Source of the DNA: Spirochaetia bacterium
Lineage (GTDB): Bacteria; Spirochaetota; Spirochaetia; DSM-2461
Reading direction: 5' to 3'
Length of the DNA: 64,000 bases
Assembly (NCBI GenBank): GCA_963666985.2
Contig: CAXXIA010000002.1
Location: 2,048,001-2,112,000 of the forward strand
Positions 1,311-17,049 of this stretch are shown piece by piece. The position numbers and the translations under genes were made by a program. The notes under the pieces are model-generated. The model was not told where the DNA came from, ran no database searches, and saw nothing but the letters and a program-made list of their open reading frames with translations. The first letter of the stretch is position 1. Every line of letters starts with the position of its first letter.

Positions 1311-1586
<276 letters not shown>

Positions 1587-1606
1587 GTTCTTCGGAAGAA
1601 TCAGGC

Positions 1607-2209
1607 TTATTTTTTGTCGCCGTTCGGACAGCGAAGGAGGCTTTTCGCCAGCAGCCGAATATACTCCTTACGGGTTTCTTCGTTGTGTAAATCCACGGAG
1701 GCAAATTGATCATAGAGCCTCGGAGCGAAGATAAGCGGAAGAAGCGTGGCCGAGATTATCTGGATGATGGCGAGCTGAAGCGTTTTTTTATCGAGTTCCA
1801 CCCCCCTGCCGGTTAAATCTTCTTCAAGATTCTTTAAGAAAAGACTGAAGGCATCCATGGACGGTCCGCTGTAATCTCCGTTGAATACCCCTGAGAAGTG
1901 GGCACGGGTAATTCCGGGAAAGTTAACAACACCTTCCATTAAGTGATTCAGGATGACGGTAAGTCTGTCGATCGGTTCGGATTCGTCCGATTCCCGGAAA
2001 TCGGACCAGTCAAAGGCATTCTTGAGTGTAATGTCGATAACTTTCTTCACAAGGTTGTCTTTACTTCGGAAGTAGTAATTGATGGCCGCGCTGTTTACAC
2101 CCGCTCTCTCAGCGACTTTCCGGATGGTCATCGCTTCGAGTCCTTCTTCATTGATGCAGTCGATTGCCGCCAGGATTATTTTTTCTTCCGCGGAAGTTTC
2201 GGAATTCAT
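1607..2209 (-). CDS. TetR/AcrR family regulator
   Basis: N-terminal HTH: AAIDCINEEGLEAMTIRKVAERAGVNSAAINYYFRSK. Confidence 0.92.
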   Translation of the reverse strand: MNSETSAEEKIILAAIDCINEEGLEAMTIRKVAERAGVNSAAINYYFRSKDNLVKKVIDITLKNAFDWSDFRESDESEPIDRLTVILNHLMEGVVNFPGITRAHFSGVFNGDYSGPSMDAFSLFLKNLEEDLTGRGVELDKKTLQLAIIQIISATLLPLIFAPRLYDQFASVDLHNEETRKEYIRLLAKSLLRCPNGDKK

Positions 2210-2248
2210 GATTTCCCCATTTGATTGAAACGGCTGTTTGATTCGGAT

Positions 2249-3166
2249 TTATCCTACATTTCTCCGGGAATCTTTTTCAAGCGGAGCGAATATTTCCTTT
2301 TCTTGAATGCCGCACATCCTTTCGGAACGTTCCCAGAGTCTGCACGCCGCGTCCCGATTATAGGAAACACGGCCGGATCGGATCGGTTTTCCTTCCAGCC
2401 AGTATGTTCCGTTTCCAAGAGTCTTAATCGGTGCGGTAATCAAATGAACGATGGTTTTGGCAGCATGATCCGAACCGACACCATGCTTTCGCCGCTTCGA
2501 CCAGAACCAGGATTCGAATCCGAGAGTGTTTTTTTGGCCGAGCCCTGTGTTTACCAAACCCGGATCGGCGGCGAAGGCGCGAACGGAACCGTGTTTCCCC
2601 AAACGGCGGGCCAGTTCGTAGGTAAAAATTACATTGGCGAGCTTGGATTGGCGATAAGCCTTGAGAAGGTGGTATCCCTTTCTTAAGTGGAGATCGTCCC
2701 AGTGGATTCGACCGGAGCGGTGCGATCCGGAGCTTACCGTTACGATCCGTGCTTCGGGGGCGGATTGAAGGAGCGGCAGAAGAAGCCGTGTCAGCAGGAA
2801 GGGTGCCAGATGATTCACGGCGAATTGGAGTTCGTAGCCCTCCGCGGTTGTTGTGTACCAGCTTGCGACCGTTGCGGCGTTGTTGACCAATCCCGCAAGA
2901 CCCTCGCATCCTCGGGAGGCCGTGAGATTTTCTATTGAAGCGGCCAATTCCCGAATATTCCTCTGCACCGAGAGATCCGCCGTAAGATATTCCACGGCGG
3001 AATTCGGGGATTCGGTTTGAATCAATGTTTTCGCGATTCGGCATTTCTCTTCCGACCGCCCGACTCCGACGACAAAGAAATTCGATGCGGCCAGGTTTCT
3101 CGCCGCCGCCAGTCCGATTCCGGAAGTCGCGCCCGTTATAACGACGGCTTTTTTCTCCGATTTCAT
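2249..3166 (-). CDS. SDR oxidoreductase (retinol dehydrogenase/WWOX-like)
   Basis: TGATSGIG, NNAA, FAVNHLAPFLLT, YRQSK, DPGLVNT. Confidence 0.88.
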   Translation of the reverse strand: MKSEKKAVVITGATSGIGLAAARNLAASNFFVVGVGRSEEKCRIAKTLIQTESPNSAVEYLTADLSVQRNIRELAASIENLTASRGCEGLAGLVNNAATVASWYTTTAEGYELQFAVNHLAPFLLTRLLLPLLQSAPEARIVTVSSGSHRSGRIHWDDLHLRKGYHLLKAYRQSKLANVIFTYELARRLGKHGSVRAFAADPGLVNTGLGQKNTLGFESWFWSKRRKHGVGSDHAAKTIVHLITAPIKTLGNGTYWLEGKPIRSGRVSYNRDAACRLWERSERMCGIQEKEIFAPLEKDSRRNVG

Positions 3167-3313
3167 TCTTTCCTCCTCACAAGGTTTTTTTTGTTCGAAG
3201 TAACTTTATAATTAAAACGTACGATTAGTCCATATGATTAAAACACGTGTTTGACGTCTCGGGTAATAAGGCTTATCGTGAATCGATTATAAGGGGACCG
3301 GGAGGATTGAGGG

Positions 3314-4129
3314 ATGGAGAGTCGGGTTATGATTACGGGAGGCGCGGGTGCTCTGGGACGCGCGTTCGCCGCGGAATGCGCGGAACGGGGCTGGGATTTA
3401 ATTCTGACGGATATCGACGGGAACGCTTTGGCCGATACGGCCGCCGGATTATCCCGCGCATACGGAATCCGCGTGGATGTTTTTCCCTGCGATCTTATGA
3501 AGGAAGAGTCCAGGAATACTCTTTATTCCGATCTCGCGGATTCGGCATTGAAAATTCGGATGCTGATTAATGTGGCGGGTCTGGATTATGAAGGCGGGGT
3601 TTTGGAAAGGACACGGGAAGAGCTTCGAAAGATCGTTCGTCTGAATGTCGAGGCGACTTTGGAAACAACTCGCGCCGTATTGGAACTGAACGATTCGGAG
3701 CGGTCCTTTCGGCTCATTACCGTCTCGAGTCTTTCGGCCTATTACCCCATGCCGCTTAAAGCGACATACGCGGCGTCCAAGGCGTTTCTGCTGCAGTTTT
3801 CATTGGCCGTTCGAGAAGAACTTCGGAGTTCCGGGGGTTCGGCAACGGCGCTTTGTCCTTCGGGACTTCCTACACGGGAAGAAGCAATCGATGCCATCGA
3901 CGCTCAGGGCTTTATGGGACGGATAACGGCGATGAATATCGGAAAAGTGGCGGCTCTGACAATCGACGGAGCGCTTAAGGGACGGGCCGTTGTAATACCC
4001 GGTGCCGTTAATCGGGTTCTTCGGTTTCTCGGTTCGATCGTACCTCTTCCGATTCAAACCAGACTCCTTGCGGCCCGATGGGAAAAAGCGCGCGGCAGAT
4101 TCCGGCCGGAACCCGCCATTGGTGAATGA
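3314..4129 (+). CDS. SDR oxidoreductase
   Basis: TGGAGALG, INVAG, YAASK; RBS GGAGG. Confidence 0.88.
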   Translation: MESRVMITGGAGALGRAFAAECAERGWDLILTDIDGNALADTAAGLSRAYGIRVDVFPCDLMKEESRNTLYSDLADSALKIRMLINVAGLDYEGGVLERTREELRKIVRLNVEATLETTRAVLELNDSERSFRLITVSSLSAYYPMPLKATYAASKAFLLQFSLAVREELRSSGGSATALCPSGLPTREEAIDAIDAQGFMGRITAMNIGKVAALTIDGALKGRAVVIPGAVNRVLRFLGSIVPLPIQTRLLAARWEKARGRFRPEPAIGE

Positions 4130-4228
4130 ATAAATCTTTAACCGAAACCCCCTGTCGACGGATTGAGAAAATCGGGCCTGCGATGTAATACATATGAAGA
4201 GTGTTTTATCGCTACAGGAGGCCCCAAT

Positions 4229-5446
4229 TTGTCAAATATCCCGATTTTTGAAAAATGCCGGAATTTTGAAGCAGCACAGCAGGCTCGGGAAGGCGGGTAT
4301 TATCCGTACTTTCGCCCCATAGAAAGAGCTGAAGGAACAAAAGTCATTATCGAAGGCCGTGAGCTGCTGATGTTCGGTTCGAACAACTACCTCGGTCTGG
4401 CTCAGGATGAACGGGTTCAGGAAGCCGCCGTTAAAGCGATTCACGATTACGGAACCAGCTGTTCCGGTTCAAGGTTCATGAACGGGACTCTAGATCTTCA
4501 TGAGAAGCTGGAGAATAAACTGGCGGAATTTACCGGTCAGGAAGCCGCCCTTTGTCATACCACCGGATATCAAACCAATCTCGGTGCCATCAGTGCGCTG
4601 GTCGGACGGAAGGATCACGTGATATCGGACAAATTTAACCATGCTTCCATCATGGACGGTATCTTTCTGGCCCGCGGTTTTTCGGGCGGGGTGAATCTTC
4701 ATCGCTACAAGCATAACGATATGGACGACCTCGAATCGGTATTGAAAAAGATACCTGCGGACGAGGGAAAAATTGTGGTGACCGACGGCGTGTTCTCCAT
4801 GGAAGGAGACATCGTAAAGCTGCCGGAGCTGAAGCTGCTTTGCGAGAAGTACAATGCCGCGGTTTATTTGGATGAAGCTCATGCCGTCGGCGTTGTAGGG
4901 GCCACGGGAAGGGGAACTTCGGAACATTTCGGTTCTCCGGATTTGGTGGATTTGGTGATGTGCACCTTCAGCAAGTCTTTCGGTTCCATCGGAGGATTTG
5001 TCGCCGGACCGGCGAAGGTTATCGATTATGTCAAACATTTTTCCCGGCCGCTGATATTCAGTGCGTCCATGCCTCCGGCCAATGTGGCCAGCGTTCTCAA
5101 AACTCTGGAAATTATCATGGAAGAACCTCAAAGGGTGCGCCGGCTGCAGGAAATCGCCGATTATATGCTCAAAGGATTTGCCTCACGGGGTTTTGATATC
5201 GGCCGCGCGGAAACGCCGATTATTCCCATTATTACCGGTTCTCAGGAGAAAACCATCGCTTACTGGACGGCTCTCTTTAATCGGGGGATTTACGTTAATC
5301 CGGTTCTGCCTCCGGCGGTTCCCCCGAACCGCTGTTTGATTCGCACCAGCTATATGGCGATTCATCAGCAGGCCGATTTGGATTATTTCCTTGATGCGGC
5401 CACCGAAGAAGCGGACAAACTTGATATTCCCCGAGCGGCGGCCTGA
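4229..5446 (+). CDS. spt: Serine palmitoyltransferase-like alpha-oxoamine synthase (PLP-dependent)
   Basis: YYPYFRPIE..GTKVIIEGRELLMFGSNNYLGL, GSRFMNGT, NHASIMDG, DGVFSMEGD, DEAH, TFSKS (PLP lysine), IFSAS; resembles Bacteroidetes SPT more than BioF/Kbl. Start placed at TTG 4229 behind AGGAGG. Confidence 0.7.
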   Translation: MSNIPIFEKCRNFEAAQQAREGGYYPYFRPIERAEGTKVIIEGRELLMFGSNNYLGLAQDERVQEAAVKAIHDYGTSCSGSRFMNGTLDLHEKLENKLAEFTGQEAALCHTTGYQTNLGAISALVGRKDHVISDKFNHASIMDGIFLARGFSGGVNLHRYKHNDMDDLESVLKKIPADEGKIVVTDGVFSMEGDIVKLPELKLLCEKYNAAVYLDEAHAVGVVGATGRGTSEHFGSPDLVDLVMCTFSKSFGSIGGFVAGPAKVIDYVKHFSRPLIFSASMPPANVASVLKTLEIIMEEPQRVRRLQEIADYMLKGFASRGFDIGRAETPIIPIITGSQEKTIAYWTALFNRGIYVNPVLPPAVPPNRCLIRTSYMAIHQQADLDYFLDAATEEADKLDIPRAAA

Positions 5447-6267
5447 TGACGAAGAGACCTTCTTTTCGATTGGCGATTCTGACAGGCGGTTCCAGCGGCA
5501 TCGGACTGGCCGTTGCCGAACGTCTTGTCGGTGAAGGCACCTCGGTGGTTCTGATGGCAAGACGCCCGGAGCTTCTCATGCAGGCCGCCGAAAGATTGGA
5601 GTTTAAAAAACGGGACAAAGCTGAAATCCACACCGTTTCTCTGGACGTTTCGGATGCTTCCGCGGTGCGCCAGGGGGTCACCCAAATTCTTCAAAACATC
5701 GGAACGCCCGATTTGGTTTATTGCGGGGCGGGAATGACTCATACCAACCATTTCGCCGAGATTACGCGGGAACAGTTTCAGGCGATTCTGACAACGAATG
5801 TCGGAGGTATTTGGAACGTGCTGTCGTCGGTTCTTCCGAGTATGAGGGAGAGGGGAGAGGGGACCGTCGTGACGGTTTCTTCCGTATCGGGCTTGGTGGG
5901 AACCTACGGGTATTCCGCCTATGCCGCTTCGAAGTTCGGCGTTATGGGTTTGTCTCAGGTTTTGAGAAACGAGCTCAAACCCGACGGGATTCGGGTGAAG
6001 GTGCTCTGTCCGCCGGATACCAACACCCCGCAGCTGGAGGAAGAGCGGCTCACGATGCCGGAAGAAACCCGGAAAATCAACGGGATGGCCGGATGCAAGG
6101 AGCCCGAGGAGATCGCCGAGGCGCTGATGAAAGGCTTACGAAAGCGACGGTTCGTTATCCTTCCGGGATTTATGAGCAAGGTTACCTGGTATCTCTACCG
6201 GTGGTTTCCCGGATTTGTTCATCTGATTATCGATTCGGATGTCCGGAGGGCGCGAAAGGCGAAGTGA
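5446..6267 (+). CDS. SDR, 3-ketodihydrosphingosine reductase (KDSR/Tsc10)-like
   Basis: TGGSSGIG, GYSAYAASKF, CPPDTNTPQLEEERLTMPEETRKI matching the KDSR-type PPDTDTP..EEN.TKP.ET..I pattern; start overlaps the spt stop (TGATG). Confidence 0.72.
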   Translation: MTKRPSFRLAILTGGSSGIGLAVAERLVGEGTSVVLMARRPELLMQAAERLEFKKRDKAEIHTVSLDVSDASAVRQGVTQILQNIGTPDLVYCGAGMTHTNHFAEITREQFQAILTTNVGGIWNVLSSVLPSMRERGEGTVVTVSSVSGLVGTYGYSAYAASKFGVMGLSQVLRNELKPDGIRVKVLCPPDTNTPQLEEERLTMPEETRKINGMAGCKEPEEIAEALMKGLRKRRFVILPGFMSKVTWYLYRWFPGFVHLIIDSDVRRARKAK

Positions 6268-6354
6268 GTGCTTTGGCTCCCAGGGAGCCGAAGCATCAGG
6301 AAGTGGTGCATTATATTGCGCTGAACAGGTGCGATACCGCGATAATATCGCCGA

Positions 6355-7170
6355 CTATTGCTTGAATTCCAGCCGAACCAGCCTGACCATGCTGAAAAGA
6401 TCGGAGAAGCGCATTCTGAATTTCGTATCGGAAGTCCATTCTTTATTTATGGCGATTCGTCTGTAGAACGGATAATCGGCGGCCACATGGATTTTCGGGG
6501 AGACTTTGGAAAAGAACTTGCGGGTGTTCCTTAAGGCGAAATACATTTCGGCGCCTTTATTTCCGGTTTTCTTGACGTAGTTGTTTGAAATCTTCAGTCC
6601 GACTTTCCCCACGGTATCGAAGACCATGGAAGAGTCGGGAAAGCTTTCGGCGATTTTTTTGATGAATTCGCCGACAACCTCTTCTTCAAAGTAGTAGAGA
6701 ACTCCCCCGACAATGAAGAGACATCCCTTTTGAGGGGTATAATCGATTCGGTTAATCCAGGAGTAATCGAAGCAGGACTGGGCTATGGATTGGCTCCGTT
6801 CCCGAGGGGCAATGTATTGATTTCTCAGCTCGATGATTTCCGGCAAATCCAGGTCGAACCATCGCACGGATCCGTTATCGATTCTTGAAAATGTGGTATC
6901 CAGACCTGAGCCTATGCTGATGATGACCGCTTCGGGATGCACGGAAAGATATTCCTTGATTTCCCTATCGAAATTGGCGGCCCTGACTGCGCTGGCCAGG
7001 CAATAGTACTCCTTGGATGAATCAATATGGCTGAAATCGTAGCCGACTTCATCGGCAATTCGGGTGGATTCGGCATCGTTGAGCAGGGACGGCCACTTCT
7101 TCGTTGCATAGGCCCGTCCCCACAAGGGTACAAAGAGTGTTTCCTGGATATTGCCGGCAGGTAATGTCAT
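6355..7170 (-). CDS. Class I SAM-dependent methyltransferase (TcmP/LCM family)
   Basis: IQETLFVPLWGRA, IGSGLDT, WFDLDLPEIIELR, GVLYYF. Confidence 0.85.
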   Translation of the reverse strand: MTLPAGNIQETLFVPLWGRAYATKKWPSLLNDAESTRIADEVGYDFSHIDSSKEYYCLASAVRAANFDREIKEYLSVHPEAVIISIGSGLDTTFSRIDNGSVRWFDLDLPEIIELRNQYIAPRERSQSIAQSCFDYSWINRIDYTPQKGCLFIVGGVLYYFEEEVVGEFIKKIAESFPDSSMVFDTVGKVGLKISNNYVKKTGNKGAEMYFALRNTRKFFSKVSPKIHVAADYPFYRRIAINKEWTSDTKFRMRFSDLFSMVRLVRLEFKQ

Positions 7171-9097: not shown

Positions 9098-10042
9098 ATG
9101 ACGGAACAACACGGCTCCGATCCTCTTATCAAGGATCTTTTGGAAGGATTTTCCCTGGTTATGAGGGGGAAAGCATCACTGATGGAGAAGGTTACCGCGG
9201 CCTTTCTCTCAGGGGGGCATGTTCTTTTGGAGGATTTGCCCGGTACGGGCAAGACGACCGTGGGACGAACTTTGGCCCATCTGGTGAAAGGGGCCGTGTT
9301 CAAGAGAATACAGTTCACGCCGGATCTTCTTCCCTACGATATTACCGGCGTGGATGTTTGGGACGAGGAGAAAAAGGATTTCGTTTTCAGACCGGGTCCT
9401 ATTTTCGCCAATATCGTTCTGGCGGACGAGATCAACAGAACCACACCCAAGGTTCAATCCGCTCTTTTGGAGGCCATGGCCGAGTTTCAGGTAACCATCG
9501 GCAACAATACGCGGCTTCTGGCGGATCCTTTTATGGTGATCGCAACGCAGAATCCCATTGAAACCGAGGGAACCTATCCTCTTCCGGAGGCACAGAAAGA
9601 CCGGTTTATGCTGCTGCTTCGGCCCGGTTATCCCGACAGGGAGTCCGAGTATTCCATCGTGCGCGACGATCCGGGCAGAACCGCGCTCCCCGGTTTGAAA
9701 TCGGTTTGTTCTTTAAAGGACTTGCGGGCGCTGAAGGAGAAGGTTCGCGAGGTGTACGTGGACGACAGGCTTCTTCGCTGTACCGTTGATCTGGCCGCCG
9801 TGCTGCGGGATCATCCCGATACTGTTTTGGGAGTTTCCACACGGGGGGCGCTGATGCTGGTTTCGGCCATGCGGTCTTTGGCGCTGATTCGCGGACGGGA
9901 TTATGTTATCGATCAGGACTTGTCCGATTTGGCCGCGGATGTTTATGCGCACCGTATCCGGCTTAGGGGCGGGAGCGCCGACGCCGTTTCTTTCGTTTCC
10001 GACATGGCCTCCAAGGAGATCCGCCGTATCCGCCATGGGTAA
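9098..10042 (+). CDS. moxR: MoxR family AAA+ ATPase
   Basis: HVLLEDLPGTGKT, RIQFTPDLLP, DEINR, ATQNPIE, YPLPEAQKDRF. Confidence 0.95.
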   Translation: MTEQHGSDPLIKDLLEGFSLVMRGKASLMEKVTAAFLSGGHVLLEDLPGTGKTTVGRTLAHLVKGAVFKRIQFTPDLLPYDITGVDVWDEEKKDFVFRPGPIFANIVLADEINRTTPKVQSALLEAMAEFQVTIGNNTRLLADPFMVIATQNPIETEGTYPLPEAQKDRFMLLLRPGYPDRESEYSIVRDDPGRTALPGLKSVCSLKDLRALKEKVREVYVDDRLLRCTVDLAAVLRDHPDTVLGVSTRGALMLVSAMRSLALIRGRDYVIDQDLSDLAADVYAHRIRLRGGSADAVSFVSDMASKEIRRIRHG

Positions 10043-12024
10043 GAGTTTTGGGCCGGGAAAGCCGCAGCCGATGGAGCCGCGGGCCGGATGGCGCGGGATT
10101 TCTCTTATCGGCCGAATCGCGGTTCGTTTGACGATGAGAAGACCGGAGAGATCCGGAGCCCGGCGGCTGATTCCGCACGATATTCGGCGGGGGGGGCGGG
10201 GGCTGATTTCACGGCGGTTTCCACAGATGTTTCGGCGGGAGTTTCAGCGGCGGGATTTGGCTCATTCCGGGCACAGCAATCCGCGACTCCGAGAGTGGAA
10301 TCCCCGCCGAAAAAGCCCGAAGAAGCCGAGAATCCGGATTCGTGTTGCGCCGCAGGCAATCGCGGCACTTTTTCTACCTCCTTTGCTGGTTTTCAGCGGA
10401 CCTGCGCGCCATGTGGCACCGGTCTTTATTCTCGGAGTGGGGCTTCCGGCTCTTGTTGTTTTATCTTTCCTGTTTTTGGTTTTATGCTTGCCGGCGTTGA
10501 TTCGTTCTTCGCGGTGTATTGATGATAACGGCGACGGCGATACCGGAGAGAGGCCGTATTGGAGTAGTCCTGAAGACGAGAACGTCTCCGATGGTTCCCC
10601 GTTTACTTCCGGGGGTGAGGCTTCAGATAGCCTGGAATCTTCGGTTTGGTCCTTTCCGGCGGGTGTTTCTCGCTCCGCTTTCAGAGCTTGGCTATTCGCA
10701 TCGGAGCGGCCGGAGTTTGAGCGGCAAAGTAGCCCGCACAGGTAAAGTGCGCGGAGGCTGGAGTGTAAGCGGATCCTCCGGCGGTGTGAGGGAAGGAGCG
10801 GCGGTTTTTCGGATTAATCGCAGAGGACTTTGGCAGGGAAGAGTCCTTCTTCGGGCTGTCGATCCGTTCGGTTTTTTTCGCGTGGATTTTCCTTTGGCCG
10901 GATCTCCCCGAATTGCTGTTCCTCCGTTTCTCACTGAGCCTCCGAATCTGCTGCCGACGGGCAGGCTTTCCGCCGATGAAAAAAGCGCGCCCAGAATCAG
11001 GGAAGACTCCGACGAGCGTCTGGAAAGACGCGGATACATCCCCGGTGACGATCCCCGGCGTATCGATTGGAAACAGTACGCCCGAACCGGCGATCTGCTT
11101 GTTCGCGTGGGGGAGGAGGCCGTGCCCGTGAGGGGGAGGGTCTGGATTTCCGTGGCTGTTTCTACCGGCCATTATTCCCGGCGTTCCGGGTATAACCGTT
11201 TGGACGGATGTCTGGAAGCGGCCTCCGCGCTGGTCCGCGGATCGCTGGAGAACGACAGGGATGTTCGGCTTCATCTGCCCGACGGCAGCACCTGGCTGGA
11301 TGCCTCCGGCAGTGACTGGGAAGCGGCCATGGCCGCCTCGGAACCTTCTCGATCGGCTCCGGTCCTCCGGCGGGGGAGGGCGCTTTTTGCCCGGAGACGA
11401 GTTTCAACAACGGTATCGGCTCCAACTGCGTGGAACACTGATGAGTCTTCCCCATCCTCCGGCAGGTGGGCACGGTCCGCCGGTTTCGAAGAACTCGGCG
11501 AACTCGAAGGGCGCAGCCAAATCGCCGCGGGAGAGTTCCCGCCTCAAGGTGAAACGCTTCTTCTCGTTATTCATCCTTCGGATTCGGCGGGCCTTGATTA
11601 TGCCGAGGCCGCCCGCTCGGCCGGGTGCCGCGTTTCACTTTTTTTTCCGGATTTTTCCTTTGCCGAAACTTCCGGCCGGAGAATGTCGGCGATCCGGGCG
11701 ACTCAGGGGAAAAAGGAGTTCCGGGAAGGCTTCTTTCGCCGGCGGGAAGGTCGGCCGAACGATCATCTTGAGTTTCGACGGAAAGCTCGGGGTGAAGGGC
11801 GGCAAAGCGGCCATCGTGAAGCTCAAGGAGAAGTCCCGGCCGGCGGATATCATCAAGACCGCCGCGGCGCTCGGTTGGCAAAGCTGCGCGATACCGGGCG
11901 TGAACCTCGATTAACTCCCCGCGCATCCCTCTCCGGCCGCCTGCAAAACGCGCTTTATCGCCGCCGAATCGAAACAGCCGTCAACACGGCACGCGGAAAA
12001 GGATTCAATGTCCATGTTCTCTAG
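10035..12024 (+). CDS. DUF58 domain protein, apparently frameshifted near 10500
   Basis: RGYIPGDDPRRIDWKQYAR is a DUF58 motif in ORF 10519-12024. The hydrophobic N-terminal part (from ATG 10035, overlapping the moxR end) is in the preceding frame; removing one base near 10500 fuses them. Confidence 0.75.
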
Positions 12025-14377
12025 CCGCATCGCCGCAGATCGGCTTACCGGAAAGCCTCCGGCCGGTGTGGTTTTCGCCCGCCGAGGCATGGCCGAACGG
12101 ATTCTGTTTCATGCCCTGGGCTGGACCCTGCTCTGCCTGTCGCTCCGGGAAGCCGTCCCGGCTGCCTGGGCCTGGACGGCCCTGCCCATCGCGGTGATTT
12201 TCGGAGTTGCGGCCGATCTGAGCGGCTTGCGCACGCTGACGGCCGCCCTGGCGCTCATCGCCGCGCCTTTGCTGATCCGCTTAGCCATCCTTGCAATCTC
12301 GGCGGCGGCCGGCTCGGACTTCATCGTGGCGCTGGATAACGGATGGGTGTTAACCGCGCCGTATTGGTATTTCACCGCGGCGGCCATGCTCTTCGTGCGC
12401 CGCCGGCCCGCGCTCGGATATGCCGAGGCCGCCGTTCTGGCCCTTTTCTGCGGCATTGTGCTGGCCCGGGACGATGATTGGAGAGCGGCCTTCTCGGCTC
12501 CGGCGACAGCCGCGATCAAGCTGGTTTGTGCCGCAGCCGTTCTTGTGCTGACCGCGCTGTGTTTTGCCGCATCGCGCCGGGGATCGGCGGCGCAAAAGGC
12601 CGGCATGGGACCGCCCCCGTTTCGCAGGCCGGATAGTTCGGATATAGCGCATTACATCATCCTGGCGGCGGCTCTGGCGCTTCTGTTTTTCGCGGGGAAT
12701 AAAATGCGCCGGGAGAGTTCCCTCAGCAGCGGCGGCGGAGTTCTCGCCAGCGATCTTTTTCATTTCGACTTCAACGACGTTCTTTCTCTGGAACCGGAGA
12801 TCAGCATGAACGGAGAGCTCACCATGCTGTACCGGGAAGACGGCCCGGCCGTTCAGCGCTATCTTCGCCGCTACACGCTTTCCGGCTGGAATCCCCAGAG
12901 AGGTTTCTTCCGGGACGGAGAGCGGGAAAAGGATTTCCCGGAGCGGGACGCCATGCCGGTGAGTCTGCCGAAGGGACCGATGGAGTGGCCTCACGCCGGT
13001 TTCGAAACCCGTGAGCAGGTCCATCAGGAATACTACCTTGTGGCTCTGGACCCCAATTCCTTCTTTGCTCTTGATTATCCGGTTTCCGTGGAGCCGTGGG
13101 TTATCTGGGACGATGCCTCGTTCGTTCGCGCGTACGCGGTGGAGTCCCGTGTTTCGATTGCGGATTTATGGGATCTCTACGGCGCGCGGACAAGCGGCAT
13201 GGCGGAGCCGGATCGGTCGTATTATCTGGAAGGAGGGGATGATCCCTACTTTATCTCTCTGGCCGAAAAGGTTGTCGGGGAGAACAAGACTCCCTGGTCC
13301 AAGGCCGCGGCGATTGAGAAATGGTTTCACAAAGAGTTCTACTATTCCCTGAAGCCGGGCCTGGCGGCCGACGGCGATCAGCTTTCCCTCTTCCTGAAGG
13401 AAACCCACCGCGGATACTGCTCTTATTTCGCGTTCGCCATGACCCGGCTCTGCCGAGCCGCGGGCATTCCCGCCCGGGTCGCCGTGGGCTTTGTGACCGA
13501 CCCGAGCGTTTCAACGCTCGGCTTTGTTCCGGTTCGGGCCGACCAGGCTCACGCCTGGGTGGAAGTCTGGCTCGACGATCATGGCTGGATAACTTTCGAT
13601 CCGACGACCGACACCATGGCTCCCGGCGAGGAATATCCCATTCAGTTCATCTCGCCGGATGAATGGCTTCCGCTGATTGAAGAAGCCCTCACTCGGCGGG
13701 GCGAAGTTTCCGTGGCCCTTGATGAAGAGGATGATACGGAGGAGAACGGCGGCTTCTGGAACAGCGTGGTTCGGCTGGTGCGGCATCGGCCCGTCCTGGC
13801 CTGGATTATCGTTATTCTGATTCCCGCGGCCCTTTATGCTCCCGGGCGAATCGTACCGGGGTTGATTTATGCCGTCGCCGCCCATTCCCGCAATTCCCGG
13901 AAACGAGTCAAAGCCCGATGGAAGATGTTTGCCCGGCGTTTGATTCGGAGCGGGAATGCACCGTTCGCCTCGGAAACCCCGGCGGATTGGGCCGCCCGTG
14001 TGTGGACTTCATTTGCTTCGGCGGGCGCGGCGAATCCGCGCACCGAAAACTCCGCCCGGGCGGCGGCGGAACTTGTGCCGGATACGAAGACGTCGACAGT
14101 TCCGAACGCCGGTCCGCACGCCGGTCCGAACGCCGATCCGCACGCCCCCGATCAAGTTCCTTCCGCCTCGCCCGGAGGCAGCGCCGGCCTGTCCGGATTC
14201 GAAGACTGGACCGCCCTGTATTTGAAGGCGGTCTTTTCCCCGGTTTTTTCAAAGCAGGATTCCGAGGTCGCCGATTCGGCCGCTGAGACCGTCCGTGCAT
14301 CCTGGAAAAAACAGCCGCGATCGGTGCGGCTTCGTTCCGCTCTCGGACTCGGATGGCTGGGAGGTCTGCCGTGGTAG
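12008..14377 (+). CDS. Membrane-anchored transglutaminase-like protein (TgpA-type)
   Basis: Multiple N-terminal TM segments; GYCSYFA, GIPARVAVGF, AHAWVEVW, WITFDPT (Cys-His-Asp triad). Confidence 0.9.
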   Translation: MSMFSSRIAADRLTGKPPAGVVFARRGMAERILFHALGWTLLCLSLREAVPAAWAWTALPIAVIFGVAADLSGLRTLTAALALIAAPLLIRLAILAISAAAGSDFIVALDNGWVLTAPYWYFTAAAMLFVRRRPALGYAEAAVLALFCGIVLARDDDWRAAFSAPATAAIKLVCAAAVLVLTALCFAASRRGSAAQKAGMGPPPFRRPDSSDIAHYIILAAALALLFFAGNKMRRESSLSSGGGVLASDLFHFDFNDVLSLEPEISMNGELTMLYREDGPAVQRYLRRYTLSGWNPQRGFFRDGEREKDFPERDAMPVSLPKGPMEWPHAGFETREQVHQEYYLVALDPNSFFALDYPVSVEPWVIWDDASFVRAYAVESRVSIADLWDLYGARTSGMAEPDRSYYLEGGDDPYFISLAEKVVGENKTPWSKAAAIEKWFHKEFYYSLKPGLAADGDQLSLFLKETHRGYCSYFAFAMTRLCRAAGIPARVAVGFVTDPSVSTLGFVPVRADQAHAWVEVWLDDHGWITFDPTTDTMAPGEEYPIQFISPDEWLPLIEEALTRRGEVSVALDEEDDTEENGGFWNSVVRLVRHRPVLAWIIVILIPAALYAPGRIVPGLIYAVAAHSRNSRKRVKARWKMFARRLIRSGNAPFASETPADWAARVWTSFASAGAANPRTENSARAAAELVPDTKTSTVPNAGPHAGPNADPHAPDQVPSASPGGSAGLSGFEDWTALYLKAVFSPVFSKQDSEVADSAAETVRASWKKQPRSVRLRSALGLGWLGGLPW
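14102..14149 (+). repeat. 4 x 12-bp intragenic tandem repeat (PNAG/PHAG/PNAD/PHAP)
   Basis: ccgaacgccggt ccgcacgccggt ccgaacgccgat ccgcacgccccc. Confidence 0.85.
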
Positions 14378-14379
14378 GG

Positions 14380-16332
14380 ATGCGATTTCGCCAAACTGCC
14401 AACCGGCCGAATAACCGATGCCATGCAGCCGGTCGGCCGGCAATACGCGCAGCAGCAATCTCCTTCTTCCATCGCTCGTCCATATTCCTTTCGACACGGC
14501 GCGCAGCATCAGCAGCCCTTTTCCTCGCGATCTTCCTCGTCATCTCCCCCCAGCCGTGCCACCCGGAAAATGCCGAAACTCCGGATGAACTCCTGGCGCA
14601 AGTGGACGCGGCCGTTGACGAGGAAAGTTACACCCGCGCCATCGCCCTTCTTGAACAGGGAAAAGAACTCTGGCCGGGAGATTTCAGAATCCCGATGCGC
14701 GCCGGAGATCTTTACAAAAGAAGGGAACTTTACAGACTCGCCCTCGCCGAATTCCAGGCGGCCGAATCCCTCTCCCCCGGCGATACCGAAATCCTCTACG
14801 AAATCGCCGAAACACACGGATATCTCGGCAATAACACCATTGCGGTGGAAACGCTGGAACAAATTCTCGACACCGCCGTGGGCGAGAATTTCAGGATTCA
14901 GATTATTTCGGACTTGAGCTGGATGTATTTCAAAACCTACCGGATGCAGGAAGGAATCGACCTGCTCGAATCCACCTTGTCCGAAGGCTTCGACAGAAAT
15001 CTTGCCCACACACTCGGAACACTGTATTCGGGCGTTTACAATCGGGAAAAATCCCGGGAATGGTATGAACTCTCCATCGAAGACGCCCTCTCTTACGGCG
15101 ATGACTACTTTGCCTCGGTGGCCTATTACAACCTGGCCCTGTTGGAATTCGCATCGTACCGGTTCGACCGGGCGCGCGCGGAAGCCCTGAACTCTCTGGA
15201 TCTCCGTTCCCGCGCCGGAGGAAACATGGTTATCGGGGAACTCGACATGATGGCCTGGCACCTTTCCGATGCTTTGGAATCCTATAAAACCGCCGAGTCT
15301 CTGGACCACACGCCGCTCACCCGCGTGGACATGGCCGTGTTCTATCAGCGCATCGGCCGACTGGATGAAGCCCTAAGGATTGTTCAAAAAATCATCGACA
15401 ACCCGGATGCGAGCTGGATGTATCACTTCGGCGTCGACAAAGTGCGCTTCGGCATGGACATCTCGGAAATTCTTGCCGACTGCTGGGCCGGCAAAGCGGA
15501 AACGGAAAAGCTGACACCCCGCGCCGGATTCATCAATCGATGCAAAAGTCTGCGCAGCAGAATCGTCTGGAGGGCAAAGGCCCGTTATCACGAGAGAACA
15601 TACAAAAAACTGGGCAAAGAGTACGCCGAAGATCTGGAACGCAAAGGCAACCATCTGGATGCCTCCTGGAATTCCTATCAGGCCGCCGAAGGCTACCCGA
15701 GAATCGCCCTGGTTCGCCTGGAAAAAGCTCGCGAGCTTGAAACCGCCATCATGGAAGCCGCCGTTCCCTGGTACGATCTGGAAGACGGATGGACATCCAA
15801 AGATCCCCAGTCTCTTCTGAAAGCCATCGACGCCTTTGGAGCTGATGAACAAAATCCCCGGGAAAGAGCTCTGCGAGGTTTATCCGGGGGCATAGGACGA
15901 GTGACCCCCGAAGCCATTCGGGATGAATCCCTCTCCGTTCTCTACCAAATGAATCCCGGCGGCCTGAGGCAGTACGGCCTTTCCCTTCCCATTGAACTCA
16001 CCGTTACCGGTCCCGGCCGCTCCTCCCTCCGGCGGAAAACAAGGATTCTGCTTCACCGCTCAAACCATTCCGTACACCGGCCGGGAGAGGGCGGCCCCGC
16101 GGCAGCGGCGCTGACCGTCTCCTCCGCGGACGATGGTGAGTGCACCTGGTACATCGCCGGCCCGGACGGACGAACCAGAACCACCGCGAAGAGCGGCAAT
16201 ACCGTCCGCAGGAAAGAAACCGCATCCATTCTTACCGAGCTGTTGAACGGCCTTTATCTTACCCCCGTGGTTCTCACCGGCGGCGGGGATAGCCGTGAAA
16301 GCGGCGCGGCTTCCGCAGGAACCGAGCCGTGA
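14380..16332 (+). CDS. Exported tetratricopeptide-repeat protein (start uncertain)
   Basis: Hydrophobic segment followed by TPR-like helices (ALAEFQAAESLSPGD, AYYNLALLEF, ALESYKTAESLD). Confidence 0.75.
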   Translation: MRFRQTANRPNNRCHAAGRPAIRAAAISFFHRSSIFLSTRRAASAALFLAIFLVISPQPCHPENAETPDELLAQVDAAVDEESYTRAIALLEQGKELWPGDFRIPMRAGDLYKRRELYRLALAEFQAAESLSPGDTEILYEIAETHGYLGNNTIAVETLEQILDTAVGENFRIQIISDLSWMYFKTYRMQEGIDLLESTLSEGFDRNLAHTLGTLYSGVYNREKSREWYELSIEDALSYGDDYFASVAYYNLALLEFASYRFDRARAEALNSLDLRSRAGGNMVIGELDMMAWHLSDALESYKTAESLDHTPLTRVDMAVFYQRIGRLDEALRIVQKIIDNPDASWMYHFGVDKVRFGMDISEILADCWAGKAETEKLTPRAGFINRCKSLRSRIVWRAKARYHERTYKKLGKEYAEDLERKGNHLDASWNSYQAAEGYPRIALVRLEKARELETAIMEAAVPWYDLEDGWTSKDPQSLLKAIDAFGADEQNPRERALRGLSGGIGRVTPEAIRDESLSVLYQMNPGGLRQYGLSLPIELTVTGPGRSSLRRKTRILLHRSNHSVHRPGEGGPAAAALTVSSADDGECTWYIAGPDGRTRTTAKSGNTVRRKETASILTELLNGLYLTPVVLTGGGDSRESGAASAGTEP

Positions 16333-17049
16333 GATTCCTCTCGGATCTGCGCACGGCGGATCCTGTCGACTGCCCCTACCTGCCGAATCGTTCGTTCATC
16401 CAGGAATACTTCTTTGCCGATTCTCTCTCGCATCGGGAATTCTCAAGGCTGCTCGCGGCCGGATGGCGCCGATTCGGAAATTTCTTTTTCCGCCCGAATT
16501 GCCCCGGATGCGTGCGGTGCATTCCCATCAGGGTCGATGTCCGCTCATTGAGTCCCACGCGAAGCCAGCGCCGCATCATCACCAGAGGCCGGGATGTCCG
16601 CATGGAGGCGGTTGAACCGCGGCCCTCGGACGAAGCCTGGCTGGTCTATTCGGAACATTCTTTGAGTCAGTTCGGCAAGGGCACCGACAGGGAAGACTTT
16701 GAACGCACCTTCTTCGATAAAGCCGTTCCCGCTTTTCAGACCGAGTACCGCCTGGATGGAAATTTGATCGCATTGGGATTTCTGGATGCCGGGGATGAGG
16801 GCATGAGCAGCGCCTACTTTTCCTTCAGAGCCGGAATGGTCGAAACTCTCGCTCGGTTCACTCAGCGTGTTCCGGGAGTCGGCCTTTGTTCTGGAGAACG
16901 GCGGACAATGGTACTATTTGGGTTATTGGGTTCCCGGATGTCCGTCCATGGAATACAAAGCCCGCTTTGGCCCCCATCAGCTGCTGGATTACGGAACGGG
17001 AGAGTGGATTCCTCCGGAGGATTATTTCATCGAATCGCTTGAGAACTAA
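16329..17049 (+). CDS. Bpt/ATE-family aminoacyl-tRNA--protein transferase, frameshifted near 16827
   Basis: CPYLP, LAAGWRRFG, FRPNCPGCVRCIPIR, SQRR, SSAYF; C-terminal YYLGYWVPGCPSMEYK lies in the +1 frame. Confidence 0.85.

Follow-up and report, generated by a model that had tools for sequence, protein, structure and literature searches.

This study concerns a two-gene unit in a 64,000-nucleotide stretch of a Spirochaetia bacterium genome (contig CAXXIA010000002.1, positions 2,048,001 to 2,112,000; hereafter the window, with coordinates counted from its first letter), in which a gene for an α-oxoamine synthase (AOS) resembling Bacteroidota-type serine palmitoyltransferase (SPT) is followed by a gene for a classical short-chain dehydrogenase/reductase (SDR) of the KDSR/Tsc10 clade. 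The AOS gene (4229..5446, + strand; 405 aa) was assigned from NCBIfam models, PDB matches and trees, and begins at a TTG located 7 nt 3' of a Shine-Dalgarno sequence, AGGAGG (4216..4221, + strand); because of the placement of this AGGAGG, we prefer TTG 4229 to the start of a longer open reading frame (ORF) at TTG 4163. Its stop codon, TGA (5444-5446), donates its final A to the ATG (5446-5448) of the SDR gene (5446..6267, + strand; 273 aa, without a membrane anchor), which was assigned by alignment, a C-terminal profile and a tree. The resulting TGATG (5444..5448, + strand) is a 1-nt overlap that suggests translational coupling of the two genes. A preliminary description of this DNA, made from the letters and their translations, had reported this stop/start overlap, an SPT-like N-terminus in the AOS and two motifs in the SDR, and all are present: YPYFR occupies AOS residues 25-29, with FGSNNYLGL also found, GYSAYAASKF spans SDR residues 155-164, and PPDTNTP...EEE..TMPEET starts at residue 189. 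The PPDTNTP substrate-loop motif (residues 189-195; 6010..6030, + strand) is unique in the genome. Positions 1521-6276 of the window are also found unbroken on a contig that a second study obtained from a related strain. Scanning for promoters and terminators gave 4 promoter-like sites (4.7 expected) and 13 terminator-like sites (8.8 ± 3.0 expected), and no support for operon limits.

Among NCBIfam models, the AOS scored highest with the CFB-type SPT model (SerpalmtaseCFB, NF047600; 512.8 bits), followed by bioF (379 bits), Kbl (369 bits) and HemA (245 bits). Its best PDB match was the SPT of Sphingobacterium (S. multivorum; 8guh/3a2b, 410 bits), with the next entry at 250 bits and CFAT (28eh) at 218 bits. 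In the PDB alignment, all eight of the pyridoxal phosphate (PLP) and serine-site residues of the S. multivorum enzyme, as given in PMC10196870, are kept, with N52, S81, H138, S190, D215, H218, T246 and K249 of the AOS corresponding to N52, S81, H138, S185, D210, H213, T241 and K244; K249, the PLP lysine, lies in CTFSKS. Also kept are the acyl-site residues Y27 and F83, and G80 of the serine site. In a 21-row tree, the AOS fell in a clade (100/100) with spirochaete SPTs from spt-cerS-cerR loci, and a 42-row tree with a weak deep split returned the same clade; the reference rows in these trees were picked by gene context (plasmid records and one Pedobacter locus) and are not assayed enzymes. A 16-row Spt-side clade (92/99) included the CFAT row, with HemA left out of the tree. 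Approximately unbiased (AU) tests rejected a grouping of the AOS clade with BioF (p = 0.00027) and with Kbl (p = 0.001), so that the SPT-like character claimed for the AOS in the preliminary description is upheld by both phylogeny and the gap between the SPT match and the next PDB entry. The only other AOS in the genome is CFAT-like (28eh 347 bits versus 209). We considered and rejected a CFAT identity for the window AOS, based on its 218 versus 410 bits and the presence of that separate CFAT-like gene with a cysteate synthase 720 kb away; the tree alone was undecided. As a separate observation, a Priestia megaterium plasmid locus (L149) encodes an SPT-side AOS with 47% identity to that of the window, with no cerS or cerR nearby. 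An SPT-like protein named Sediminispirochaeta (P0324) shows 68% identity.

The SDR carries TGGSSGIG (G14, S16, G18 and G20), R39, S146, Y159 and K163, which are invariant in 108 aligned rows; R39 we take, by general SDR rules, to be the basic residue of NADP(H)-type members. PPDxTP occurs in only one of the 27,634 six-frame ORFs of the genome, the window SDR, and PPD[TV]xT[PA] is found in 99 of the 108 aligned homologs. The preliminary description had treated this motif as a mark of eukaryotic KDSR. This holds for six eukaryote-type KDSRs, which carry PPDT[ED]TPG or PPDTNTPG, but the motif is not universal, as Cryptococcus TSC10 has PCGISGP at this position. The six were obtained by a search among longer proteins that gave 17 matches, six of them with N-terminal anchors and PPDTxTPG: P0410 is named as a Nelumbo 3-dehydrosphinganine reductase, P0411 is from EukProt and has 8jat (Cryptococcus TSC10) as its first match, and four are without names and presumably eukaryotic. 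For all six, the window SDR is the best match in the genome. In a 44-row tree, 21 bacterial members and the six eukaryote-type KDSRs grouped together (99/95), to the exclusion of 17 other SDRs; this clade is partly selected, because the set was gathered by similarity. Within it, the eukaryote-type KDSRs nest beside a Pararhizobium SgaC-like row and two more bacterial rows (96/96), not beside the window SDR, and bacterial monophyly was not rejected (AU p = 0.054).

Used as a lone query, the window SDR resembles generic SDRs, and PDB searches lead with FabG-like SDRs. Its C-terminal half, also as a single sequence, placed 8jat 11th in the PDB, and a profile of the C-terminal 136 positions (23 loci) placed it first, at 81.6 bits, with the next single-domain match at 51.6 bits; the profile and 8jat share GYxxxSxxKxA and ExxTKPxxTxxI, not PPDT. 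Together, the tree clade, the six of six best matches and this first rank bear out a place for the SDR in the KDSR clade, and JGI names eight of the 120 listed homologs 3-dehydrosphinganine reductase. The window SDR is devoid of the N-terminal hydrophobic endoplasmic reticulum (ER) anchor of eukaryotic members, with a peak 19-residue hydropathy of 1.26 (versus 2.3-2.8 in four eukaryote-type KDSRs) and a length of 273 aa (versus 353-449 aa for the six fetched). Foldseek/VIA-align with an AlphaFold model of the SDR (predicted local distance difference test score 95.6) gave near-tied SDRs, for example HSD17B13, with 8JAT outside the rows shown, and did not tell the subfamilies apart. Membership of the Bacteroides KdsR family (NF049977) was rejected, as the window SDR scored 102 bits against a cut-off of 400 and the best score in the genome (182 bits) belongs to another SDR. 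Fusions of KDSR-like domains were seen in five proteins (P0159, P0210, P0258, P0262 and P0196), the partners being AOS, extended-SDR (CerR-like), acyl-AMP ligase, FAD-linked oxidase and MFS transporter; these are mostly singletons, and read-through artefacts may account for some.

The pairing of these two genes is conserved. Thirteen of 41 relatives have a KDSR-type SDR, with an SPT-like gene no more than 1.5 kb away in seven. Across 251 Spirochaetia genomes, 70 have a KDSR-type SDR, 78 an SPT-like gene and 53 both, so that an SPT-like gene (called at 430 bits or more, a threshold put at a score gap after the scores were seen) is present in 53/70 KDSR-bearing genomes versus 25/181 others. The two genes lie <500 bp apart on the same strand in 44 genomes, one of which has a cut SPT match of 348 bits; 42 have the order KDSR-SPT and two have the order of the window, SPT-KDSR. 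At 80 named loci, an AOS stands beside the SDR at 9 of 19 family-type loci versus 1 of 61 generic-SDR loci, and the loci with this arrangement span Spirochaetota, Chloroflexota, Deltaproteobacteria and Pararhizobium. Adjacency of AOS and SDR is thus beyond chance. P0159 is a 744-aa AOS-KDSR fusion, a singleton whose AOS half is of another lineage.

When the neighbors at 39 loci were clustered, a single family of relevance to lipids recurred: a tandem GNAT protein of 380 aa, present at nine loci. Its relatives in plasmid records include E. coli yghO, which in some strains stands beside aasR-cerR-acp-spt, and a protein annotated in Roseomonas as 'dATP pyrophosphohydrolase', whose gene lies in a sphingolipid cluster resembling that of Caulobacter; the Caulobacter bCerS bears the same annotation. 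In Streptomyces, Rubrobacter and Pedobacter, X of spt-X-cerR is a member of the family, and the middle place in such spt clusters is that of bCerS (PMC11324152). We therefore refer to it as the bCerS/YghO family, an assignment made from gene context rather than from an alignment with the Caulobacter enzyme; the family is not named by any Pfam or NCBIfam model, and its PDB relatives are short GNAT matches only. The genome has a single member (C2:1967199-1968437), ∼80 kb before the window, which scored 258 bits with the family profile and is 28-38% identical to five cluster-encoded CerS-like proteins. Members occur in 45/53 genomes with both SPT and KDSR, 22/25 with SPT only and 47/156 with neither gene. 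Unbroken CerS-KDSR-SPT runs are present in seven relatives (G054, G149, G168, G184, G197, G215 and G235) and at the named loci L017 and L028. The preliminary description, which recognized no acyl carrier protein (ACP), bCerS or CerR in the window, implied that an N-acyltransferase was lacking. For the window this stands with regard to bCerS and CerR; ACP was searched for solely by blastp with E. coli AcpR, which had zero matches genome-wide. For the genome the implication fails: it carries a bCerS/YghO-family gene, and in relatives such a gene frequently completes the operon as its third member, so that the pathway more likely ends in dihydroceramide than in free sphinganine. A genome search for a TLC/LAG1 ceramide synthase gave no match, as did its positive control. 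The neighbors of the host bCerS-family gene encode YhhN-family, acyltransferase-3, acyl-CoA thioesterase, FakA/DegV fatty-acid kinase fusion and DUF1295 proteins. Elsewhere, a gene for a 430-aa protein (L017:6926-8218 and L099:9447-10754), which runs convergently to the SPT gene, has a weak WS/DGAT-like match (E = 2e-4) and two homologs of 31-32% identity in the host genome, and possibly encodes another acyltransferase.

A CerR profile was built from eight cluster-encoded proteins, with likely orthologs scoring 250-487 bits. No CerR ortholog was found in the host genome (93% complete), where the best score over the 27,634 ORFs was 138 bits. At a threshold of at least 250 bits, CerR is present in 1/53 SPT+KDSR genomes versus 10/25 SPT-only genomes, three of the ten having contributed to the profile; at 160 bits or above the counts are 4/53 versus 15/25. 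In reading these counts, kin are not independent, eight candidates were scored per genome and many genomes are incomplete. KDSR and CerR are nearly mutually exclusive in Spirochaetia, an observation new in this analysis. Within genus g7, G215 has CerS-KDSR-SPT and G025 and G188 have CerR, CerS and SPT; in genus g52 the same swap separates G149, G168 and G235 from G081. The SPT and CerS genes of the swapped loci are sisters in trees, and the KDSR-clade SDR appears to stand in for CerR in Spirochaetia.

On the strength of these comparisons, we consider it probable that serine and a long acyl-CoA or acyl-ACP are converted at this locus to 3-ketosphinganine and then to sphinganine, which is probably N-acylated afterwards. 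In this route a soluble SPT would join serine (or a similar small amino acid) with the acyl thioester, the KDSR-clade SDR would reduce 3-ketosphinganine with NADPH in the cytoplasm, and the bCerS/YghO-family acyltransferase encoded ∼80 kb before the window would then add the N-acyl chain to give dihydroceramide. The sequences, their overlap, the family placements, the gene neighborhoods and the distribution are observed; from these we infer the substrates, the cofactor, the order of steps, the use of the distant acyltransferase and the final lipid. The preliminary description had proposed that 3-ketosphinganine or a related amino-lipid is made and directly reduced; reduction first remains the best reading, and the related amino-lipid is kept below as a rival.

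Several observations weigh against this route. On the side of the synthase, 512.8 bits is below the curated NF047600 cut-off of 640, a cut-off that is passed by 0/251 genomes of the class and 1/14 controls. Most of the conserved active-site residues are shared across the AOS family, M271 of S. multivorum is replaced by I276 and GTFSKS by CTFSKS, and the AU test leaves a grouping of the AOS clade with CFAT unrejected (p = 0.17). On the side of the reductase, TSC10 lay outside the top 60 PDB matches of the single-sequence query, and a full-length family profile (108 of the 120 listed homologs) placed Cryptococcus TSC10 (8jat) only 7th. It was the profile of the family itself that retrieved the eukaryote-type KDSRs, only P0410 among them bears a KDSR name, and sampling for the tree was limited, with a small outgroup. 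The SDR family also pairs with polyketide synthase (PKS)-fed AOSs and with a third AOS type, and therefore marks α-aminoketone reduction rather than specificity for serine or a C16 chain; in E. coli assays, SDRs are promiscuous towards such ketones, several acting on 3-ketocapnine (PMC11211663). Finally, the host bCerS-family gene is unlinked to the pair and long-branched and may serve the sulfonolipid cluster, and the family is present in 47/156 genomes with neither gene and was not seen in 8/53 SPT+KDSR genomes.

One alternative keeps the same three enzymes in the bacterial order, with bCerS acylating 3-ketosphinganine and the KDSR-family SDR then reducing the oxidized ceramide as a cytoplasmic stand-in for CerR. 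The swapped loci lend it weight, since there the SDR takes the place of CerR alongside sister SPT and CerS genes, as does the position of the KDSR gene between cerS and spt in seven relatives; furthermore, Caulobacter bCerS acylates 3-ketosphinganine before reduction (PMC11087976). We nevertheless regard this order as unlikely, given that the SDR clade includes eukaryotic KDSRs, whose substrate is the free base (PMC9278070), that the pair is kept in 8/53 genomes without a bCerS-family match, and that the SDR family also follows PKS-fed AOSs with single-chain base products.

We regard as quite improbable a related but different amino-alcohol as the product, whether a 1-deoxy base derived from alanine or glycine, a base with a branched or short chain, or a free long-chain base that does not go on to N-acylation. 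Near-sister SPTs occur in canonical spt-cerS-cerR loci, the serine-site residues N52, G80, S81 and H138 are retained, and a distinct CFAT, accompanied by an SDR and a cysteate synthase of its own, is encoded elsewhere in the genome; set against this are the sub-threshold SPT score, the CFAT grouping that the AU test did not reject, the unlinked acyltransferase of the host, the acceptance of Ala, Gly, Thr and homoserine by S. multivorum SPT (PMC10196870) and the report of 1-deoxyceramides from anoxic waters (PMC11334938). A housekeeping explanation, in which the AOS is BioF or Kbl and the SDR an unrelated neighbor, draws on the automatic naming of approximately 16 of the 120 closest homologs (counted by eye) as 8-amino-7-oxononanoate synthase or similar and on the absence of any separate Kbl or BioF in the genome by blastp, and is very hard to credit in view of the AU rejections (p = 0.00027 for BioF and 0.001 for Kbl), bioF and Kbl models 130-140 bits below the SPT model, no BioB above cut-off in the genome, and adjacency of the pair in 44/70 genomes plus one fusion.

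We thus conclude that the pair is real and conserved and is best read as encoding a putative Spt-KDSR(-bCerS) route by which spirochaetes would make sphinganine and dihydroceramide. A broader proposal is possible, and we advance it tentatively: that a hybrid ceramide route, combining a bacterial Spt, a true KDSR ortholog and bCerS in the eukaryotic order, may operate in 53/251 Spirochaetia and in Chloroflexota and Deltaproteobacteria, that KDSR displaced CerR in place more than once, and that eukaryotic KDSR arose from inside the bacterial family. The prevailing view is that ceramide synthesis arose convergently in bacteria and eukaryotes; if eukaryotic KDSR is nested in a bacterial family, the second step of eukaryotic sphingolipid synthesis would be bacterial in origin, not convergent. 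Eukaryotic sphingolipid metabolism as a whole has been tied to Asgard archaea (PMC12872458), which is at odds with KDSR being of bacterial origin. Whether bacteria reduce or acylate first is disputed, with acylation first supported in Caulobacter (PMC11087976). A soluble KDSR-clade enzyme that swaps with CerR among close kin having the same Spt and CerS would provide natural enzyme pairs for testing both convergence and step order, and structural and kinetic work should be easier with an anchor-free KDSR than with the ER enzyme.

A KDSR homolog beside a bacterial AOS is already in print: PfSgaC was proposed in the PKS-AOS cluster (SgaA-SgaB-SgaC) of Pseudomonas fluorescens MYb115, where the KDSR step was deemed unusual in bacteria except Bacteroides and Prevotella (PMC12134224). 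A literature search, which left subscription papers largely outside, turned up no report of spirochaetes making sphingolipids de novo and none of this Spt-KDSR pair. Spt-like genes have been reported from 38 phyla, in many cases with no cerS or cerR in the vicinity (PMC11334938); the main text of that paper does not contain 'Spirochaet', and Spirochaetota may be among the 38 phyla in its Fig. 3B or tables. Spirochaetes are likewise unnamed as producers in the available parts of PMC12619533, which puts sedimentary sphingolipids at ∼20% of the lipidome, and of bioRxiv 2026.04.12.717747. The route proposed here would add spirochaetes to the sphingolipid makers and bear on the reading of sedimentary sphingolipids, and it offers a possible answer to the Spt-like genes without nearby cerR in anoxic waters and sediments (PMC11334938).

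The host genome comprises 4.86 Mb. That it belongs to a spirochaete, as the preliminary description had supposed, is borne out by three FlaA genes above the Pfam cut-off (none in 14 control genomes) and by the named close homologs of the AOS and SDR, which are mostly from spirochaetes, including the Olavius algarvensis spirochaete endosymbiont at 55%. A locus outside the window (L015:2141-8521; G000:C2:2828140-2834520) encodes an SDR, CysD, CysN/C, a cysteate synthase above cut-off and the CFAT-like AOS (28eh 347 bits), and is likely a sulfonolipid (capnine) cluster. No LpxA above cut-off was present in the genome, and lipid A synthesis was therefore not found. An LpxA-less genome fits an outer-membrane use of sphingolipids or sulfonolipids, as is usual in cells devoid of lipopolysaccharide, and if the proposed route operates the two classes together would supply the outer-membrane lipids.

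Other genes of the window were treated as context only, with a Pfam scan covering positions 1-21,217. An upstream SDR (3314..4129, + strand) ends 99 nt before the SPT start; its best NCBIfam model is mycolate_SDR (128 bits, cut-off 380), it lies outside the KDSR clade, and close matches occur in 3/41 related genomes including the host, on other contigs or far from the pair. Next to it is a divergent retinol-dehydrogenase-like SDR (2249..3166, - strand; PRK06197, 177 bits), with a TetR-family regulator (1607..2209, - strand) behind that SDR. Apart from the window itself, neither neighboring SDR stands beside the pair in the 39 loci scanned, and with the upstream SDR in only 3/41 genomes, the earlier suggestion that these two enzymes modify the product is not supported. 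A leucine-carboxyl-methyltransferase-like gene (6355-7170, - strand) is convergent on the SDR gene; strain X3 differs here, with 2.2 kb inserted immediately upstream of this gene and other sequence in place of the gap 6276-6370. Further downstream, 9098-17042 (+ strand) holds a run of genes for MoxR ATPase, DUF58, transglutaminase-like, TPR and arginyl-transferase-like (ATE_N) proteins, ordinary except for the ATE-like gene.

Other loci with members of the family have their own arrangements. The Deltaproteobacteria locus L031, with KDSR-SPT, a divergent lipid-A-type acyltransferase, a VTT-domain gene, a CDP-alcohol phosphotransferase and a CerS-like gene, is a possible phosphosphingolipid cluster. 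A second cluster type with the third AOS type is found in relatives (L176-L180, in G009, G008, G192, G178 and G012), in the order [KDSR], CerS-like, acyltransferase, ketosynthase, FabG, HMG-CoA-synthase-like, two enoyl-CoA hydratases, enoyl reductase and AOS, which suggests a β-branched acyl chain entering an amino-lipid; in G008, a CAT/E2-fold acyltransferase-like gene and KDSR take the place of the CerS of the other loci.

Compared with known systems, the locus is like the MYb115 Sga cluster in having an AOS beside an SDR proposed as a KDSR homolog. That cluster differs in that its acyl chain comes from an iterative PKS and its AOS is of another lineage; the activity of SgaC is a proposal there (PMC12134224). 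No iterative type I PKS stands beside the AOS among the ORFs of window positions 1-21,000. PKS-AOS-SDR clusters of Shinella and Pararhizobium carry the family of the window SDR, and the best match of the Shinella SDR in the genome is the window SDR. Bacteroides thetaiotaomicron likewise has a CFB-type SPT and an SDR shown to reduce 3-ketosphinganine, BT_0972, described as only a partial Tsc10 homolog whose gene is unlinked to spt (PMC9278070); since the window SDR scores 102 bits on NF049977 (cut-off 400), the two reductases belong to different families. The sulfonolipid (capnine) route, through cysteate synthase, CFAT and 3-ketocapnine reductase, has the same chemistry with cysteate in place of serine, and is separately encoded in the host. 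With the Spt-bCerS-CerR route of Caulobacter, Pedobacter and Streptomyces the host shares an Spt-like gene in the window and a bCerS/YghO-family gene elsewhere in the genome; it differs in that no CerR ortholog was found (best 138 bits), no acpR or aasR lies beside the gene, and a KDSR-clade SDR is coupled to it. The eukaryotic route, SPT followed by KDSR/Tsc10 (8JAT; Nelumbo P0410), has the same succession of an AOS and a KDSR-clade SDR, and the window SDR is 34% identical to P0410 over 243 residues, with GYxAYxASKF and PPDTxTP common to both, whereas the window is distinguished by a soluble homodimer-type SPT, an anchor-free reductase and a candidate bacterial GNAT-type acyltransferase.

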